Positions 5,680 to 45,577 of a stretch of DNA of 64,000 nt are shown here, one piece after another. Source of the stretch: Octopus vulgaris. Taxonomy: Eukaryota. The notes beneath the pieces are model-generated. The model saw only the letters and a list, made by a program, of their open reading frames with translations, did no database searches and was not told the origin of the DNA. The stretch lies in assembly GCA_951406725.2 (NCBI GenBank), contig OX597816.1, positions 107,074,001 to 107,138,000 on the forward strand, read 5' to 3'. Made by a program: the position numbers and the translations under genes. The stretch's first letter is position 1, and each line of letters begins with the position of its first letter.

Positions 5680-6839
5680 AACACACACACACTGCATTGT
5701 AATGGATATATTTATGCGCATGATATGCATGCTGATGGATGTGTGTGTGTGAATGTATAGTTCTTTTTTGGAAAGATCTCAAAGTACATTACATAAAACT
5801 ATAAATAATAGCATGTAAATATTATGTTGGAAAACTGGTTTGGATAAAAAAAAATTACGGTTACCCGCGAAACACAAACCCACATATGTTAAAGGAAATA
5901 AACTTGAACAAAGTACCTAATACGAAAAGTTAGAAATTAGAAATTCATAACCAAGTGGTTAGTGCATCAGGTTTACGATCGTAAGTAAGGTCATGGGGTC
6001 GGTTTCTGGACCGAGTTGCGCGTTGTGTCCTTGAGTAAGGAATTTCATTTTACGTTGCGCTAGTCTACTTGATTGAAATTCTCCCGCAGTTTTAACCTCT
6101 AGCAACTGTTGCGCCTAGCTGTACAAACACACACACATCTATACACTCCGAAGGCATGAGCGTAAGACAGCGTAACATGGAATAAGTTACTCGTAGGATA
6201 TGCATGTAACGGTAGTCTCTCGTAGTCCTAGAAAGACGGTTCTTCAATTTTTTCCTGAACAACCTGCACAGATGAGTTATCAGATCTTTGTATCGTACAT
6301 AAGCTCTGTCCTTCCATCAAATCAACAATGCTACATGGTGTGCCACGCGTCAAATGTCGAAGAGATCACGGAAGAGCGTGAGATAACGTGTTTTGCTTAA
6401 GAACACAACGCACCACCAGTACTAAGAAACGAACCCACAATCTCGCGATAGTGAGTGTAACACCCTAACCACTAGGCCACGCGTGCATAAATACATACAT
6501 ATATGGACACATACATACAAACACTCATTTGTACATATATGTAAACATGAATACACGTACACCCACAAAGACACCCGCGCCCCGCACACACATACACCGA
6601 CATATGTACACAGATTTTTGTACAACCACATATACATACACCTATTCGTATATGTACACATCAAATAAAAATGCTATTATATAGAGTATATACATATTTA
6701 CATCCGTACCCACACTGTGTATGCACATCTATATATAAAAAAAACTTTGTATTATTTCGTGTACTCATACAAATACGAACGTATACACATACACACACTC
6801 AAACACATACACAAACACATAAACATATATACATACATA

Positions 6840-9430
<2,591 letters not shown>

Positions 9431-10507
9431 ACTTTGATACTTTGATACTTTGATAGGTTTCGGCCATTATTGGCCCAGGCCATGTCTAACTTAATAGCAC
9501 CACCTGGTGAAGTCTTTCAAGTCAGAATTTGGGCACTATGGCCCACTCAAGTAGAGAGTTATTGTTTACAGAGACATATCCGGGTGTAGGGGGTTTATCC
9601 GGGATTTCTTGAAGGAATCTGTCCAAAGACTTCTTGAACCCTATAGGGTCAGTTTCTGTTTTAATGTGTTTTGGTGTAATGTTAAAGAGAGCGGGGCCAA
9701 CTGAGGTGAAATAATTGTGCCGTATTGTTGTTATGAGATGAGAGTGCGATTTTTGTTTTGGGCGGATGGCACGGGGCCCAAGCCTTGGATGTACCTTAAA
9801 GGTGATGCCAACATCATTTGGGCAATGCTGATGGAATATTTTCCACATCATGCAGATGATGTAGCGCTCACAACGACGTTGAAAAGAATAGAGTTTTAGC
9901 TTTTCTAGTCGACCCCAATAGTCGAGGCCTGTCATGCCATCTATCTTTTTTGTGATTGCCCTTTGAGGTGCTTCGACTTTTATGATACCTTGTATTGTGT
10001 GGGGAGACCACAGTGGACAACAGTATTCAAGGTGGGGTCGGGCAAAAGTGGAGAAGAGAAGGATAATGGTCTGGATATCTCTCGACTGGAAAGTTCTGAG
10101 AATCCAGGAACACATTCTGCGGGCCATGTCAACTTTGGTGTTTATATGAGTGGCCCAGCTTACGTTGTTGTCCACAATTACTCCCAAGTCTCTGATGTTG
10201 TTGGACGCCGCGAGAGTTTCACCTGAAGGAAGGGAGTATGGGAGTTTCAGGGCATCCTCTTTTCCAAAGTGGATTAGCTCAAATTTATCCTCGTTCAGCA
10301 GCATATTGTTTTTTTCTGCCCATTGGATAACAGCCAGTAGATCTGACTGAAGGCATGTCCGGTCACTCTGCCTCATTTATGACCTTCTGTATGGAGTCAT
10401 CTGCAAAGATTTTTATGTTGCTGTGCTTGATGATGTCATTAATATCATTAATGTAAATGATGAAAAGAAGTGGGCCCAGCACAGTGCCTTGCGGAACGCC
10501 ACTACTG
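9431..10507 (-). mobile_element. 5'-truncated CR1/L2-type LINE (RT C-terminal half, 3'UTR, (ATCAAAGT)n tail), copy 1
   Basis: Minus-strand [53 protein letters not shown] are RT motifs. Stop at 9522. Tandem 8-mer tail at ~9431-9454. Embedded in (TA)n. Confidence 0.93.
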
Positions 10508-10621
10508 TATATATATATATATGTATATATATATATGTATATATATATATGTATATATATATATGTATATATATATATGTATATGTATATATATATGTAT
10601 ATATATATGTATATATATATG

Positions 10622-10674
<53 letters not shown>

Positions 10675-11287
10675 GTATATATATATATGTATATATATGT
10701 ATATATATATATGTATGTATATATATATATGTATGTATATATATATATGTATATATATATGTGTATATATATATATGTATATATATATATATGTATATAT
10801 ATTTATGTATATATATATATATGTATATATATATATGTATATATAACGTCGGATGTAATCAATTGAACCACACGCGTATTTATCGTTATGGTAAAATCTG
10901 GCGTGTGATTGAGTGGATTTCATCCAGATAGTTTTGGCTGACGAGCTACAAGTGGATTTTTTTGTAAGTAAAATTACATATAATTCATTAATAGCGAAAC
11001 AATTGTCCCAAAATAATCTGTATTTTTGTTATTTTTTATTTGCCCTGTCCGTGTGAGCTAACAATCGTACTGACTTTCATGGGAAACATGTATTTTTGTG
11101 GTTGAAACCTTTTGGATTAACTGGTGCTAGAGTGAGCCATATAGTGACCACTCTCTTATATTTATTTTGTAAAAATATTATAATATATTATAAAATATTA
11201 TAATAATCCAGGTTTCTCGAGCACTAGGCCACTTGGTGTTGAATAGATATACTATTAAATTAGTATCTAATTCTCTCACCCTTATTA

Positions 11288-11337
<50 letters not shown>

Positions 11338-11380
11338 GTATATATATATATGTATATATATATGTATATATATATATATG

Positions 11381-11716
<336 letters not shown>

Positions 11717-11717
11717 G

Positions 11718-11752
<35 letters not shown>

Positions 11753-11753
11753 G

Positions 11754-11788
<35 letters not shown>

Positions 11789-11815
11789 GTATATATATAT
11801 ATGTATATATATATG

Positions 11816-11962
<147 letters not shown>

Positions 11963-12041
11963 ATATATATATGTATATATATATATGTATATATATATAT
12001 GTATATATATATATGTATGTATGTATATATATATGTATATA

Positions 12042-12108
<67 letters not shown>

Positions 12109-12152
12109 ATATGTGTGTGTGTATATGTATATATATATATTATATATATATG

Positions 12153-12187
<35 letters not shown>

Positions 12188-12242
12188 GTATATATATATG
12201 TATATATATATGTATATATATATGTATATATATATGTATATA

Positions 12243-13318
12243 CTTTGATACTTTGATACTTTGATAGGTTTCGGCCATTATTGGCCCAGGCCATGTCTAA
12301 CTTAATAGCACCACCTGGTGAAGTCTTTCAAGTCAGAATTTGGGCACTATGGCCCACTCAAGTAGAGAGTTATTGTTTACAGAGACATATCCGGGTGTAG
12401 GGGGTTTATCCGGGATTTCTTGAAGGAATCTGTCCAAAGACTTCTTGAACCCTATAGGGTCAGTTTCTGTTTTAATGTGTTTTGGTGTAATGTTAAAGAG
12501 AGCGGGGCCAACTGAGGTGAAATAATTGTGCCGTATTGTTGTTATGAGATGAGAGTGCGATTTTTGTTTTGGGCGGATGGCACGGGGCCCAAGCCTTGGA
12601 TGTACCTTAAAGGTGATGCCAACATCATTTGGGCAATGCTGATGGAATATTTTCCACATCATGCAGATGATGTAGCGCTCACAACGACGTTGAAAAGAAT
12701 AGAGTTTTAGCTTTTCTAGTCGACCCCAATAGTCGAGGCCTGTCATGCCATCTATCTTTTTTGTGATTGCCCTTTGAGGTGCTTCGACTTTTATGATACC
12801 TTGTATTGTGTGGGGAGACCACAGTGGACAACAGTATTCAAGGTGGGGTCGGGCAAAAGTGGAGAAGAGAAGGATAATGGTCTGGATATCTCTCGACTGG
12901 AAAGTTCTGAGAATCCAGGAACACATTCTGCGGGCCATGTCAACTTTGGTGTTTATATGAGTGGCCCAGCTTACGTTGTTGTCCACAATTACTCCCAAGT
13001 CTCTGATGTTGTTGGACGCCGCGAGAGTTTCACCTGAAGGAAGGGAGTATGGGAGTTTCAGGGCATCCTCTTTTCCAAAGTGGATTAGCTCAAATTTATC
13101 CTGTTCAGCAGCATATTGTTTTTTTCTGCCCATTGGATAACAGCCAGTAGATCTGACTGAAGGCATGTCCGGTCACTCGCCTCATTTATGACCTTCTGTA
13201 GCTTGGAGTCATCTGCAAAGATTTTTATGTTGCTGTGCTTGATGATGTCATTAATGTCATTAATGTAAATGATGAAAAGAAGTGGGCCCAGCACAGTGCC
13301 TTGCGGAACGCCACTACT
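12243..13318 (-). mobile_element. 5'-truncated CR1/L2-type LINE, copy 2
   Basis: Nearly base-identical to 9431-10507, with the same truncation point and tail. It differs mainly by a few small indels near 13100-13205. Confidence 0.93.
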
Positions 13319-13319
13319 G

Positions 13320-13438
<119 letters not shown>

Positions 13439-14123
13439 GTATATATATATATGTATATATATATATGTATATATATATATGTATATATATGTATATATAT
13501 ATATGTATGTATATATATATATCCAGTATATATATATTATGGCTGACGAGCTACAAGTGGATATATATATATGTAAGTAAATATATATTTATATTCATTT
13601 ATGAAATATATATATCCCAAAATAATGTATATATATATATGTATATGCCCTGTCCGTGATGTAATCAATTGTACTGACTTTCACACATGTATTTATCGTT
13701 ATGGTTGAAATCTGGCGTGTGATTGAGTGGATTTCATCCAGATAGTTATAGTGACCACTACAAGTGGATTTTTTGTAAGTAAAATTACATTATAATTCAT
13801 TAATAAAATATTGTCCCAATAATCCAGGTTTCTGTATTTTTGAATAGATATACTTTAAATTAGTATCTGCCCTGTCCGTGTGAGCTAACAATCGTACTTA
13901 CTTTATATATATATATGTATTATATTGTGGTTGAAACCTTTTGGATATATATATGCTAGAGTGAGCCATATAGTGACCACTATCTTATATTTATATTTGT
14001 AAAAATATTATAATATATTATAAAATATTATAATAATCCAGGTTTCTCGACATATATGTATATACTTGGTGTTATATATATACTATTAAATTATATCTAA
14101 TTCTATCATATGTATATTATATG

Positions 14124-20750: not shown

Positions 20751-21395
20751 ATGTGTGTGTGTGTTGGTTTGACATGCGGCATTGAAAATGGATCACAAAA
20801 GCAACATTATTAAGCAGAAGAGATTCCACATTTGGTGTTCGCCCGCAACAACATGCCTGCCTACCTGTCTACCTGCCTGCCTACCTGTCTGCCTGCCTAA
20901 CTTTCTGTTTATCTATTGATTTATGTACCTACTTGCATGCGTATATGTCTGTCTGTCTCTCTCTCTACATATACATACATAAATGTGTGTATGACCCTTG
21001 TCAAATGATAAAGAAGTACACTATTTCTATACAGTACTCACTACAATTTAACCACCGACCATATATTAATTATTTTTATTATTCTAACGTGTACCTTCGC
21101 CCACCCGCTCAAAGAATTGCGTTTTGTTGATCATTTTGCTGGATATGTATTTATCTGTTAACACACATTTAGAAGTGCCAAACCATCTTCCCAATACAGA
21201 ATGTTACTCGGTTTCTGGTATTAGTCCTTTAACATTTAAACTAACCATATCTGGCTCTACCCGTTTTATGTTCAAAGCGACCAAATCTGGCCTTTCACAG
21301 TAACCTCTAATGTCATTCTAAAAATAAACAATCGCATCGTCATGATCCAAAAGCTAGCAAAAGTGCACAATTATTTCAAAATAATATGAATATTA

Positions 21396-21900
21396 GAAAA
21401 TCCCTATAGGAGATGAAAGCAGTGACTATACTGAGAAATAATGTCAACCGCCACTTAAACATAGCTATTCCGTGGAAACCGAGGATAGTGCTATTTTTAA
21501 TCCCAGCAGGATGCTCCTCCAGCTGGTTATTCGACGCAATCTGCACCCGATATATATTACAAGCAAGGGAGTTTCCTCCCTATCATCTTCTAGCCACGAG
21601 ACCTCCAGACCGCACGGTTTCGACCTCTTTGTGGTCATGCTAGGTGGTGGATACTCGTCCGCTAGAGATAGCAGTAGTTCACTCCACCACTGAAGATGGC
21701 GACAAAGAAGTCGAAACCGTAGAGTCTGGTAGTCTCGTGACTAGTTGATGGCAGGGGTTCACTCCCTTGCTTGCAATATATATCGGGTGCAGATTGCATC
21801 GAATAACCAGCTGGAAGAGGCGTCCTCCTGGGGTTAAAAATAGTAGTAACATTGGTTCCTACGGAACAGCTATGTTTAGGTGGTGTTGAACATTACTTCT
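21396..21900 (+). mobile_element. 505-bp foldback (rod-forming) non-coding insertion with 14-bp TSD
   Basis: TAATATGAATATTA is repeated at 21382-21395 and 21901-21914. Arms 21434-21651 and 21683-21900 are reverse-complementary at about 80% by manual alignment. Confidence 0.85.
21686..21730 (+). ncRNA. Type I hammerhead ribozyme motif
   Basis: ACCA-CTGAAGA-T-GGC(GACAAAGAA)GTC-GAA-AC(CGTAGA)GT-C-TGGT. It has the CUGANGA and GAAA core, helices I-III can pair, and the GUC cleavage triplet ends at 21726. Confidence 0.7.
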
Positions 21901-22422
21901 TAATATGAATATTACATTTGATAAAGTAATACTTGGTCTTTTTTCCCATCTGTTACTACACTTTTCATATGATCTTACGGAGTGGGTAAAAAAAAATCGT
22001 TGTCACTGCAGCATGACAGCCAGTTAATAGGAGAAGTCATCTAAGCAGTACAGAGGAATTTGGATGTATATGTATGATAATTTATATGCTCAGAATATAT
22101 CAAGATAGATATATTTTTTGGAATATAAATAGGTCATAAGAAGTAAAAAAGTGACAAAAGTAGAACATTGATTTGGCAATTCTTGCGTTTAGGACAATAT
22201 TTACGCTTTTGTCATTTTGCATTAAGTATTAATTTGTTTTGTACCCAACGGAAATTTTAAAAAATTATTTCTGTATCGTGCCTGCAGTGAACTTTGCGAT
22301 ACGCTTGAAATACTTCTTGATGTTTTTAATTTGTGTTATTGGTATAAACGCATGAACTCATATATGTGTACACACACGCGCGCACACACACATACACACA
22401 CACAAACACATGTATATGTGTA

Positions 22423-22462
<40 letters not shown>

Positions 22463-22500
22463 AAAAGAATGTGTGTGTATGCGTATGTTATATATATTTA

Positions 22501-22532
<32 letters not shown>

Positions 22533-23442
22533 GAGAGTATTGTAGTTCGCTTGAAGCATTTTGTGGTGTTTGTAAAGAATAAAAAGTTTTGAATGGTTCA
22601 ACAATGCACTATAATATAGACAATGGGCTATATACCTGTTGTAATTTAGTCATCCATAGTCTGATATGATATTTCGGAATAATATTCCTTCTTCAGATAT
22701 TCTTAGATGGAGTCGCTGCTATAATCGGTTTTCTAACGGCTTTTCTTTTTTGTTTTGTGGAAGCGTCTCAGCAGTGGTCTCATGATGCTCCTTTCAGAAT
22801 TCCTCATGAGAAGTGTGTGAGGTCAGCCATGTCTCAATCTCATGTGTGCTGGTACATCCCTAGCGCTGCTTCTAAGTTACATATTAAACGTGCAGCTTCC
22901 TTTTTCCCCTTCTTTTTCTTTTTACTCTTTTCTTTTTTTTTTTTTGTTATAAACTACTGATGAGCATATTATCAAAAATGAACCTATACGCATCCAAATG
23001 TATCTAAATAATGTATCGATTACCAACCTCCAGCCTGTTGTTAATTTGGGGCCCTAGTCTGTATGAGTATAACTTCCTTAATTCTTAAATTACCCAAATT
23101 TCTTTCATTGGCCTCAATTATGATTGTTATGCTTTTGTCGGTGTTCTGGTATCTGTCTAGATGTTTTCCGAAGGAGGAAGCTCTCGTGTTCAGATGTTCT
23201 TTGATGCGGACATGTAACGGTCTTGTTGTGCTAACCACATAGAACTTGTTGCATTTGTTAACATTGTATTCTATACACAACATTTACCCGATGACATAAA
23301 TCTGTGTCACGGATTGGACAGTTTGTTAGTGTACATTGATTGTTGTCCCTTGTTCGTTTCTTAGTGAGGTGTCCTCTCAGAGAGGGGCCGGAGTGGGCTT
23401 GTTGTATGTCTAGCCCTTCTCTTTTTATGGCTCTTCGAATGG
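22533..23442 (-). mobile_element. Penelope-like element 3' fragment (GIY-YIG endonuclease plus pLTR)
   Basis: Minus strand CTLTNCPIRDTDLCHRVNVVYRIQC / NKCNKFYVVSTTRPLHVRIKEH..LRIKEVILIQ is a GIY-YIG domain with one frameshift. A downstream hammerhead lies at 22663-22701. Both ends abut microsatellites. Confidence 0.88.
22663..22701 (-). ncRNA. Minimal (Penelope-type) hammerhead ribozyme motif
   Basis: Minus strand ATAT-CTGAAGA-A-GGAAT(ATT)ATTCC-GAA-ATAT-C-ATAT: intact core, 5-bp helix II, palindromic 4-nt helix III, AUC cleavage triplet. Confidence 0.75.
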
Positions 23443-35099: not shown

Positions 35100-36391
35100 C
35101 GAGGGGCGTTCAATAAGTAATGCCCCTGACCCACTTCCCATAGCAGTAGAGCAACGAAACGTGGCACAGTTATTAGTCCTTTTCTACATAGGAACCACCC
35201 AGAGTTACGCATTTTCCCCATCGTTTGATGCAGCTCTGGAGACCGTTTTTGTAGAAGACCCCAGCTTGGTCCTCCAATTACGACGTGACTTCAGAAATCA
35301 AGGCTGCATCATCTGGGAAACGCTTTCCTTTCAAAAACAACTTCATGGCTGGGAAGAGGTGAAAATCAGAGGGTGCAAGGTCGGGAGAGTAGGGGGATGG
35401 GGGAGGAGTTCATAGCCGCACGCCTGTGCTTCTGATCTGGTGACACGCGAGTTATGGATCGGAGCGTTGTCCTGCAGGAGGAGGATGCCTTTGCTGATCT
35501 TGCTCCGCCTCTTGATTTTGATAGCTTCTCTTAATTTCCTCAAAACTGAAGCATAATAGGCTCCTGTAATTGTGGTACCCTTTGCCAGGAAATCTGTCAT
35601 CACTACTCCGTCCTGGTCCCAGAAGACTGTGAGCATGACCTTGCCAGCGAAGTGCTGCACCCTTGCCTTCTTTGGAGGAGGTGAGTTACGGTGCTTCCAC
35701 TGCATTGACTGTGCTTTGGTCTCTGGATCATAGTGATGAACCCAGGTTTCATCCTGCGTAGTCAGTCTTTTGAAAAATTTTGACTCATCTTCTTGGCACA
35801 TCTCCAAATTCATCCTCGAGCACTCGATGCGTTCTTGCTTCTGGAAAGGTGTGAGCAACCTGGGAATCCATCTAGCAGACACCTTTTGCATATGCAAATG
35901 GTCATGAATGATAGTTTCCACAGACCCGGTACTAATCTTGACCTGATGGGCTATTTGGCGAATTGTTATGCGTCGATCTTCCAAAATGGCAGCCTCAACT
36001 TGACGGACAGATGCCTCATCAATGGCAGAAGAGGGGCGACCAGATCTGGAAGCTGTTTCCACAGTGTTCCGACCATGTTTGAATTCACGATGCCAGCGTT
36101 TTACAAGGTCATATGATGGGGCATCATCACCATAAGTTACTTTCATTTCATCAAAAGTCTCCTGTGGTGTGCATTCTTTCAAATACAAAAACCGGATTAC
36201 TGCTCGACACTCAACAGGCTCCATTTCACACTTGACTCAGTTCAAACACCTGTAAATCAGAAACCACAATTATTTCAGAGCTGTAATTTGTCACTTAATC
36301 TATAGTGATATAAATAATTGCACATGCAAAATTTCAGCTAGATCAAACAATTGCAAGTGGGTCAGAGGCATTATTTATTGAACGTCCCTCG
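35100..36391 (-). mobile_element. Full-length mariner transposon (1292 bp)
   Basis: TIRs CGAGGGGCGTTCAATAAGTAATGCCCCTGACCCACTT / AAGTGGGTCAGAGGCATTATTTATTGAACGTCCCTCG. TA TSD at 35098-35099 and 36392-36393. Confidence 0.96.
35270..36224 (-). pseudogene. Mariner DD34D transposase, frameshifted near the C-terminus
   Basis: WIPRLL, TQDETW and LQDNAPIH motifs are in frame. A 1-bp loss in PHPP shifts YSPDLAPSDFHLF out of frame, and a premature TAA follows EVTS. Confidence 0.93.
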
Positions 36392-42595: not shown

Positions 42596-45577
42596 AGATC
42601 ACATACCAAAGTAGCATCCTTTTCATTAATATTAAACGGAAGTAACAAAGTGACTATAGCGTAGGCTCGAAACGTAAAAGACTTTTTCATTTTTCCCGAG
42701 CTTCAAACTAATACACTTGCTTGTTGTTCATACACCTGTCTTTGTCATTCGTTTTTGTATAAATTTCAACTATATTTATATATATATATATATGTGTGTG
42801 TGTGTGATTTCACAGACAACTGTACTGCCAAGCAGACATGAAACCAACGGTGACTTTCTGATCAGTTATATGCCATAATAAAGAACATGCTACTCGACAA
42901 TATAGAAGTATAACTACTCAAATTTTCTTTTAGAGTGTTCTTTCTTCTGGTTTATGGGCATCTAACCGATATCTGTGTGCGAGGGGTGTGGGATCGATGG
43001 GTGAGTGTGCGTGCGTGATGTGTGTGTGCACGCTCATATATTTGTGCACGTATTTAATTAAGATTTTTCATCTTCTTACAACGCAGCCAGGTGTTTTGGC
43101 AATTTCTTTTATTGTCAAATTCAACGATCACTCAATCGGAATCTATAGCATTATAATCGTCGTCGTCGTTATCATCATCATCATCCTCTTCATCTTTTTT
43201 ACAGTTATTTCTTTTCCGAGCTGGCATCGCATGGACGGCAACTGTTGAGGCAGTATTCAATGGTCGGACTCTCTTCCTGTTGCCCATTCTTTTCTGTTTT
43301 TATTTTTCAAGCAGGATACTTTCAATTTCACTGGTCTTTATTTTACAATGGAACTTTGAGTTCTGGAGCATACTGCTCACAAGGAACGTAAACATTGTCA
43401 TCGTTTTTTACTCACACAGTGACAATGTGAAGAAACGCAGAAACACACTCACGCGCGCAAACAGACACACTCACACTCTTTCTTGTAGCAAAACAACACC
43501 TTTAGCTAAAGAGAAACTTCAAAAGCAATTCAAATAAAGGCAGGGAGAGGTCGGGAAGCTTTGTTGTGACTTGATAGCTTTCCTTCATGTAGCTCTTTGC
43601 TAGTTTATCTCAATATCACTTTCATACCCTCTCTCTTGCATGTTTACTCAGCCTCTCACTTCTTAGAATCCTCTGTCTGTCTATCTCTCTGTATCTCTTT
43701 GTATCTCTCTCTTCTTTCTCTCTAGTTCTCTCGTGTTTTTTCTCTATCTATCGGTCATTTCTTTGTCTCTTTTCTAATTCCGTAACTTTCTCCATTCATC
43801 ATTATCAACACCTACGTCACTGTTGGTGCCCGCTATTATAAAAACTAGCTGTTTATTTCTTACTTAGTTTAAGTTACTTGTTTTATCTCTTAGCAAAATG
43901 TAGATGTTGGAACTTTTGCACACACACACACACACAGATACACATTCACACACGCATTAACATGCACACACAACACATACACATATACACATTCACACAC
44001 GTACTTACATGCTCACACATATATACATATATTCACATACACACGTTTAACTATGTGTGTTTGTATTATATGCATAGTTTTATAAATGTACGGACTTTTT
44101 TCTCTTTCCTCTTTCTGACGAAGAACCATGCTCGAAACGTCACAACTAATCCTTTTCCTTCTTGAACTTTCACTCAGCGTCAATCTAATATATTCACTGT
44201 GTACAACTTTTTAACTTTTTGTCGTTTTTCTTGTTTTTGTTTTTATTTTTGATTTATATGTATATATGTGTATATGCGTGCGTGCTTGCGCGCGTTTGTG
44301 TGTGTCCAGAAGTCCAGATGTAGCCTAGAACTGCTGTTGAATTCACTGGCTCAACTAAGAATCCAGTGGCTCTTTCCTAAAAGTTATCTTTGTGTTACTA
44401 GTTAGACGTGGATGTGACTGAATATTGGACTGCCTGGGCAAATCAAGATCATGATGATGATCATCATCATTTAACACCTATTTTCCTTGCTGACTTGGGT
44501 TGGATAGTTTAAGAGGAATCAGCAAGCTACAAGGCCATGTTGAGCTCTAATGTCTGCTTTGGCATGGTTTCTGTGGCTGGATGCCCTTCCTAACACTAGC
44601 CACTTAACAAAATGTACTGGGTGCTTTCTTTTTGTGCCGCCAGCACCAGTGAGGTTACCAAGTACTTGCTAGACAAGAAAAGAACAGGAAGAAGGAAAAA
44701 AAACCCCTCTAACTAAATGGGAAATGGATGTTTGAGAAGAGAAGGGATGATAGTTCAAGCATGCATGTGCACACACGCACACATCTATATACGCACATAC
44801 CCGCAGGTTTGTGTGTATATAGATGTGTGCGTGCATGTGAGTATGTGTGTATACAGACGTGTTTTACTCATTGTTTTTTTTTACACTTTTCCCTGTATTT
44901 TTGCCTTTAGCCATGCTTCTTCTTGTGCATGTGCGTATATAGACGTGTGTATGAACTATATATGCGTGCGCGTATATAGACGTGTGCGGGTATGCGCGTA
45001 TATAGACGTGCGTGTGTGTGTGTGCGTGCATACGGGTATGTCGTATATAGACGTGTTTTACTCTTATTGCTTATATCTTTTTTTATACTTCTTTACACTT
45101 TCTGTATTGTTGCCCTTGGCCCTGTTTTTTTCTTGTGCTTGTGCGTATATAGACGTGTGTGTGTGTGGGGATTATATATATATACATATTTTTTTTTGCA
45201 AATGATGTGGGGGAGAATGTGTATGTTTCAAGTGAGGGTGGATGAGTGTATACTTATAGGCGCATGAACGTGGGTGTGCGGGCGCGCATGTGTAGGTATG
45301 GACATGCGCGCTTACGCGAATACTATGTATAATTTTACCTCCTTACTTTTACTCCCTCCCTTCACTTAGCGGTCATTCAAATAGCTCTTTTGTCTTAATA
45401 ACGGTCAATCACACAGTAATTTCTCTTTGGTTTAACGGTCATTTTCATGGCATTATTTTTTCCAATGACCGGATAACTGAAGGGATGGCAGCTTGGATTT
45501 CCACCTCGACATCCAAAACTCAGAGTTTTATCATGGCTACCAAATAATTGTCACATATTACCTTTACAGATATATAT

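Follow-up and report, generated by a model that had tools for sequence, protein, structure and literature searches.

Rod-like folds with hammerhead ribozymes in both polarities are characteristic of Avsunviroidae and other viroid-like circular RNAs. Pairs of hammerheads on opposite strands, 100-700 bp apart, have already been reported (PMC4209133), and the link between animal retrozymes and Penelope-like elements (PLEs) is based, in the available text of the most recent account, on co-occurrence and phylogeny (bioRxiv 10.64898/2026.07.22.740005). In the accessible parts of the PLE literature, insertions are described as carrying an inverted, 5'-truncated copy in head-to-head arrangement, a 30-40-bp tail on one side only, microsatellite or AT-rich targets and target site duplications (TSDs) of 8-10 bp (PMC3846280, PMC8557442). 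The PLE protein is described there as nicking and extending both strands and starting at two internal sites (PMC11167929), and the formation of the inverted insertions and of the tails is given as open (PMC8557442, PMC11167929). A literature search that lay mostly outside subscription journals, Repbase/Dfam and supplements recovered no description of the family reported here or of the two-template model proposed below.

We analyzed a 505-bp insert (21396-21900) within a 64,000-nt stretch of the Octopus vulgaris genome, referred to as the window, whose coordinates are used throughout. An initial annotation had read the insert as a rod with opposed ribozymes, representing a hammerhead RNA element inserted by the reverse transcriptase (RT) of a retroelement with a long TSD, and had named retrozymes and Penelope pLTRs as leads. 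Of this reading, a hammerhead RNA element inserted by a retroelement RT with a long TSD is upheld. The rod as a unit did not survive, as it is a one-off head-to-head join of two monomers with a unique junction. Overall, the locus is likely a dead insertion of a non-LTR retrozyme mobilized by PLEs, and its hairpin is a by-product of insertion (Table 1).

Insertion site and target site duplication

The insert is bounded by identical 14-mers and interrupts a short repeat with terminal inverted repeats, which may be piggyBac-like; both the perfect 14-bp duplication and the split MITE had been recognized in the initial annotation. The host repeat has matches of 74-84% at 40 other places in the genome (the best 40 of 2430 first-look candidates), and its sequence resumes past the second 14-mer. 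In an alignment with 14 host copies, read by eye, the copy in the window is missing 8 nt, a deletion present in 0/14 of the others, and the gap lies inside both 14-mers. Because this private gap sits within both of them, the duplication is genuine and arose after divergence of the host copy; to judge from this alignment, it is a true TSD. The retention of a perfect 14-bp TSD at the decay corresponding to the age of the family has a probability of ~0.15, which is acceptable, not likely.

The longest stop-to-stop frame across the insert is 91 aa. The unit has no ORF and thus lacks the RT and GIY-YIG ORF between pLTRs that marks an autonomous PLE.

Table 1. Features of the insert and of the interrupted host repeat (window coordinates).
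Feature	Position	Strand	Details
Left part of host short repeat	21220-21395	+	MITE-like, TTAA-ended terminal inverted repeats; from genome matches and alignment with 14 copies
TSD copy 1	21382-21395	+	TAATATGAATATTA; AT-rich, near-palindromic; contains the private 8-nt deletion of the host copy
Left arm: one monomer of the ~355-nt retrozyme family, truncated at its 5' end and terminating near 3' site A	21396-21686	-	
38-nt 3' extension of the left arm only, PLE-type "tail"	21396-21433	-	unpaired in the rod
Left-arm type I hammerhead, broken core CCUAGCA	21602-21650	-	U4C family-wide; G5U and G8C private
Microhomology TCCA, 4 nt, common to both arms at the head-to-head junction	21683-21686	.	
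Right arm: a second monomer of this family, likewise truncated at its 5' end and terminating at 3' site B	21683-21900	+	
Right-arm type I hammerhead	21684-21732	+	core CUGAAGA, extra U after A9, GAAA, GUC; stems partly decayed
TSD copy 2	21901-21914	+	TAATATGAATATTA, identical to copy 1
Host repeat continuation	21915-21930	+	CATTTGATAAAGTAAT; right terminal repeat unrecognizable; by-eye comparison with host copies

Elsewhere in the window, two near-identical C-terminal RT fragments, presumably LINE-type, lie on the minus strand at 9522-10376 and 12333-13172 amid very long (TA)-rich microsatellites (~6700-13600); the pair is either a tandem duplication or an assembly artefact. The minus strand also carries a 297-aa frame at 35343-36236 whose motifs we take to resemble those of a mariner-type transposase.

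The repeat family and its head-to-head junctions

Searching the genome with the insert returned 1,646 first-look candidates, 40 of which were scored. Among these best 40, most of the other matches span a single arm, either query 1-291 or query 288-505, on opposite strands of one place. Because the two sets of matches share places in this way, the two arms are one sequence. The monomer recurs at ~330-365-nt spacing, also as direct partial tandems, and no common extension outside it was found in the flanks of family copies. On the strength of these matches, the insert is read as two 5'-truncated copies of a ~355-nt non-coding hammerhead repeat joined 5' to 5', with the arms ending at probe positions 364 (left) and 322 (right).

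After four duplicates were dropped, 66 unique loci comprised 22 head-to-head, 0 tail-to-tail, 24 direct multiple-copy and 20 single-copy loci. The 24 direct arrangements run counter to the initial view that the element is unlike the tandem-repeat type of animal retrozymes. That view had been accompanied by a warning that the arms might prove to be the pLTR of a normal Penelope in inverted arrangement; inverted family copies do exist, but the monomer belongs to a non-coding family and is not the pLTR of a coding Penelope. Head-to-head arrangements also account for 8/24 of the loci newly found with a single-arm query, and every head-to-head junction inspected was different.

The family has two 3' end sites, A and B, ~55 nt apart (the offset at the window locus is 38 nt). 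For instance, the 3' ends of 44 one-strand loci fall at 360-379 in 25 cases, at 300-329 in 15 and elsewhere in 4. One A end is combined with one B end at 10/22 head-to-head loci by script and at 12 by eye; this pairing is not strict, as A/A was seen by eye in two loci and B/B in one, with the others unassigned. Many family copies terminate in (TA)n or (CA)n. In a crude scan for TSDs, 11/42 loci were flagged, 5 of these 11 being internal (monomer overlap or internal repeats), and a long unambiguous TSD was present only at the window locus among the 42 scanned. The family shares with non-LTR retrozymes a type I hammerhead in the unit, short non-coding direct tandems and, at the window locus (TSDs being rarely visible elsewhere), a TSD longer than 4 bp, and with PLE-mobilized non-autonomous elements the head-to-head inverted copies and one-sided 3' tail.

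The 20-mer spanning the window junction occurs once in the genome. Its eight one-mismatch matches comprise two ordinary family copies and six places on C17 that belong to one segmental duplication; these six were set aside as a single duplication of unrelated fragments. Because the junction 20-mer is unique, the rod represents a single event and there is no mobile unit. Six segmental duplicates of at least 3 kb that are 95-98% identical (L049-L054, G000:C17, 67.5-79.5 Mb) contain decayed inverted family fragments.

Probable integration by a PLE enzyme and the question of the template

The locus very probably consists of two 5'-truncated retrozyme copies placed head to head, likely in one integration event carried out by a PLE enzyme, and subsequently subject to neutral decay. 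Family membership, orientation, the microhomology, the TSD, the two preferred 3' ends and arm divergence at the family level are observed; which enzyme acted, that both ends were primed and in what order the steps occurred are inferred. In our reconstruction, a GIY-YIG endonuclease would nick the two strands of an AT-rich site with a 14-nt stagger, and each 3'-OH would prime reverse transcription on retrozyme RNA. One start near internal site A and the other at site B would produce the one-sided tail. The two cDNAs would then meet and anneal at TCCA, and fill-in would yield the inverted structure together with the TSD. Extending this to the family as a whole, we tentatively propose, as something less than probable, that it records a form of PLE integration in which two separate RNAs are primed, one at each end of a single staggered cut, with different internal start sites preferred on each side and cDNAs joined by microhomology.

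PLEs are encoded in the genome, which contains intact 781-aa RT + GIY-YIG ORFs. Because this ORF length recurs at many places, the PLE family is considered young and abundant. A genome search for GIY-YIG gave 150 scored matches, and none of the 30 GIY-YIG loci compared with the monomer had a blastn match to it (0 coding PLEs with monomer similarity). Two PLE loci deserve mention in their own right. One (L149:545-2890, G000:C16) has an intact 781-aa RT + GIY-YIG ORF with no hammerhead pattern seen downstream, and the other (L111:190-2233) is an insertion that lies between inverted arms of 93% identity and, as read by eye, has a minimal, degenerate hammerhead-like motif at ~2045-2080.

One of 83 loci is a retrozyme-PLE chimera (L063:1501-2325; G000:C2, ~94348918-94349742), in which the monomer lies head to head with the GIY-YIG C-terminus and 3' UTR of a PLE, between (TA)n and (CA)n. 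The PLE part is 5'-truncated and has 76% nucleotide identity to L111 over 460 nt; upstream PLE sequence was not detected on the opposite side of L063. This joint supports PLE mobilization and two-template joining without being proof of either, and it could represent two adjacent events. If the two-RNA proposal is true, the chimera would be physical evidence of two-RNA priming and of PLE trans-mobilization of animal retrozymes. PLE fragments near four further loci (L026, L136, L148 and L163) were considered as partners; they lie hundreds of bases away and were treated as neighbours.

Alternatively, the same family and enzyme could have generated the inversion from one template, by fold-back or self-priming, or by twin priming on a single retrozyme RNA, dimeric or circular. 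For the template step, and for this step only, we regard such an origin as plausible if somewhat short of probable. Derived states are more often common to the arms of a single locus (2.1 per 100 nt) than to random pairs (0.93 per 100 nt), and palindromes at head-to-head junctions have been read as self-priming, as proposed for rotifer Penelopes in the available text of PMC3846280. However, the window junction has no palindrome, only the 4-nt microhomology and 31 unpaired nt, and the 2-3 derived states common to its arms lie within background. Furthermore, the L063 chimera joins two different elements.

Rod fold, arm decay and hammerhead motifs

The hairpin of the 505-bp insert is real. Its arms (21428-21651 and 21683-21906) are separated by 31 nt and, depending on the segment, show 77-95% complementarity. 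The minimum free energy is -307 kcal/mol (z -31.6) for one polarity and -312 kcal/mol (z -24.8) for the other, values matched by 0/100 shuffles. The ~218-nt arms and rod of the initial annotation are therefore upheld, but the ~30-nt loop, which it treated as that of a unit element, is an unpaired 5' overhang of the left copy.

Several comparisons place the divergence of the arms at the level of the family. The two arms have an identity of 0.821, where pairs of family copies average 0.816 (sd 0.032; 202 aligned columns, 24 copies), and over the same columns and copies the left arm differs from the column majority by 10.9% and the right arm by 10.4%. Of 12 head-to-head loci examined, 11 have arms that overlap, and at these the identity between arms is 0.803 compared to a background of 0.806. 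The clusters of symmetric loops and the G:U pairs in both polarities that the initial annotation pointed out are present, but they do not exceed what chance provides for two decayed copies. Set against 250 random pairs drawn from 55 family copies, the window arms have 8 mismatch runs of at least 2 (8.2 +/- 2.9 in random pairs), 10 and 14 G:U pairs in the two polarities (13.9 and 14.9) and a transitions fraction of 0.60 (0.62). Complement-type transversions make up 0.25, vs 0.19 +/- 0.06, with 15% of random pairs as high, and the duplex energy is among the best 12% of random pairs. The initial annotation had called for a check of whether the arm mismatches are fixed; the TT/TT loop is not, since at 21745, a position within it, the X2 ortholog carries the family base. 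As far as the family alignment can tell, the arm mismatches are decay at the neutral family rate. An ADAR-edited template was considered and dropped, the arm changes being mainly C>T and G>A, as in the family.

Contigs across the central junction are present in DNA runs of three labelled organisms (A, B and C), from which the insertion is old or at least widespread. The X2 ortholog, compared over 21396-21783, has ~16/432 differences inside the element vs 3/484 in the flanks (p 0.002; counts from tables), with 0 differences in ~250 nt of the right flank; for the element against the left flank alone, p is 0.09. This raised divergence could be due to hairpin mutagenesis or to a conserved right flank. 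It counts against the insertion-and-decay reading. Among the runs listed as holding the insert, none is on record as RNA. One depth-2 contig from a possible RNA run (X1) spans the right junction and no listed piece falls on the rod body, which speaks neither for nor against an RNA.

The right-arm hammerhead had been described as full. Its core is intact, with C21726 as the cleavage C by position in the sequence motif, but its stems retain only 5/6 (stem I), 3/4 (stem II) and 2/4 (stem III) pairs, and the Rfam Hammerhead_1 scores of 14.6 and 13.3 bits are far under the gathering score of 34. An Rfam scan of 20800-22600 detected no hammerhead up to E 5, the weak matches appearing solely in a narrower scan, and a single-arm family copy scored 18.1 bits with Rfam HH9 (gathering 52). 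The minus-strand motif with a broken core, also reported initially, was recovered in the left arm (Table 1). A genome search with a hammerhead pattern gave 17 matches, all of them family copies. A loose pattern matched 12 times across the window, which is at chance (16/100 shuffles had as many); one such match, at 44115-44157 (plus strand), is compact and hammerhead-like (CTGACGA...GAAAC).

The core and three stems of a type I hammerhead recur across 53 family motifs, with an extra U between 9 and 10.1 in 49/53 and a palindromic helix III/loop 3; a base at this position and a palindromic helix III/loop 3 are listed for PLE/metazoan hammerheads in the available text of PMC4209133. Because stem II covaries between C:G and G:C among family motifs, the hammerhead fold was once under selection. 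The core is fully intact in 6/53 motifs, and position 4 is C in 30/53 and U in 19/53. The compensatory stem II pair sets apart two subfamilies, of which the C:G one has mostly the U4C core: among 75 motifs examined, 22 unassigned and 4 with other bases, C4 and U4 number 20 and 10 in the C:G subfamily and 2 and 17 in the G:C subfamily (p 1e-4). In a viroid, U4C lowers activity without abolishing function, according to the accessible part of PMC3088659. One subfamily may have spread with a weakened U4C core, which would suggest that efficient cleavage was unneeded for its retrotransposition. The U4 of the right arm may itself have arisen by CpG decay of C4.

According to the folding models, forming either hammerhead would cost 46-47 kcal/mol in the full rod RNA and 36-47 in nascent RNA, compared to 4.9 kcal/mol in a single-arm copy. 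Because the antisense arm is transcribed first, the hammerhead is predicted to be buried in read-through RNA of either polarity. Both window hammerheads are decayed, and both are predicted to be buried in the duplex.

It is conceivable that an insertion dead by origin now acts, on read-through, as a source of long dsRNA, either for siRNA or as a substrate of A-to-I editing. A duplex of ~220 bp is predicted in either polarity, and the insertion has been kept in the three labelled organisms. We nevertheless consider this role unlikely, given arm decay at the neutral family rate and a duplex energy that, being only in the top 12% of random pairs, gives no sign of selection for pairing.

It is very unlikely that the rod evolved as a unit, as a viroid-like RNA or a rod-type retrozyme RNA with a hammerhead in each polarity, and was then reverse-transcribed into the genome. 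The rod is indeed very stable in both polarities, it has one hammerhead motif in each, and complement-type transversions are slightly up (11/43 vs 74/496; p 0.08, or 0.03 against other transversions in a post hoc comparison). However, the mismatch statistics, complement-type changes included, equal those of random pairs, and the TT/TT loop is changed in the X2 ortholog. Both arms are homologous members of a family dispersed in the genome whose closest matches to the single-copy junction are ordinary or segmentally duplicated, the minus core is broken by private changes, and the predicted cost of hammerhead formation is far above that of a single arm. Neither functional ribozymes in both polarities, as judged from predicted folds, nor a rod propagating as a unit was found. 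Also very improbable is a conventional MITE or a foldback DNA transposon bounded by long terminal inverted repeats, for which the long inverted arms and TSD would speak and for which the initial annotation expected identical arms and TSDs of fixed length: the arms are 82% identical and face 5' to 5' at junctions that vary, the majority of copies have one arm or form direct tandems and are truncated to differing extents at the 5' end, TSD length is not fixed, and the whole unit has no second copy.

The preferred reading, a decayed head-to-head retrozyme insertion, means that the window locus itself matters little. It does provide a caution for scans, as head-to-head PLE-type insertions of hammerhead repeats can mimic viroid-like rods without selection, and this mimicry covers two opposed ribozymes, G:U pairs in both polarities and symmetric loops. 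The family is of modest value: the tails, inversions and chimera in a non-coding retrozyme add insertion-level evidence on the retrozyme-PLE link.

Compared to Avsunviroidae and rod-like viroid-like RNAs, the insert is alike in being a rod with a hammerhead motif per polarity near one end. It differs in that its arms are paralogous genomic repeats and the unit is single-copy, TSD-flanked and decayed, with one dead core.

The likeness to animal non-LTR retrozymes, as described in the available portions of the literature (PMC7229834, Cervera & de la Pena 2020; Li et al. preprint, bioRxiv 10.64898/2026.07.22.740005), extends to a short non-coding monomer, GC <50%, a canonical-type type I hammerhead, direct tandems, a TSD longer than 4 bp and the presence of PLEs in the same genome, with no LTR, PBS or PPT noted. 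In contrast to those retrozymes, the arrays of the window family are short (up to ~2 units seen) and old, a third of its loci are head to head, and one subfamily is mostly U4C. A head-to-head arrangement of animal retrozymes was not found in the available text of these two sources.

Relative to endonuclease-positive PLE insertions, the unit is without an RT/GIY-YIG ORF and its monomer without a match to the sampled PLE loci, and the A-B spacing of ~55 nt (38 nt here) is for most copies beyond the published 30-40 bp. Nonetheless, as far as the accessible parts of those reports describe them (PMC3846280, PMC8557442, PMC11167929, PMC4209133), both systems place an inverted 5'-truncated copy head to head beside a direct copy, and both combine a tail at one end, two internal RT starts, AT-rich or microsatellite targets and TSDs of variable length.
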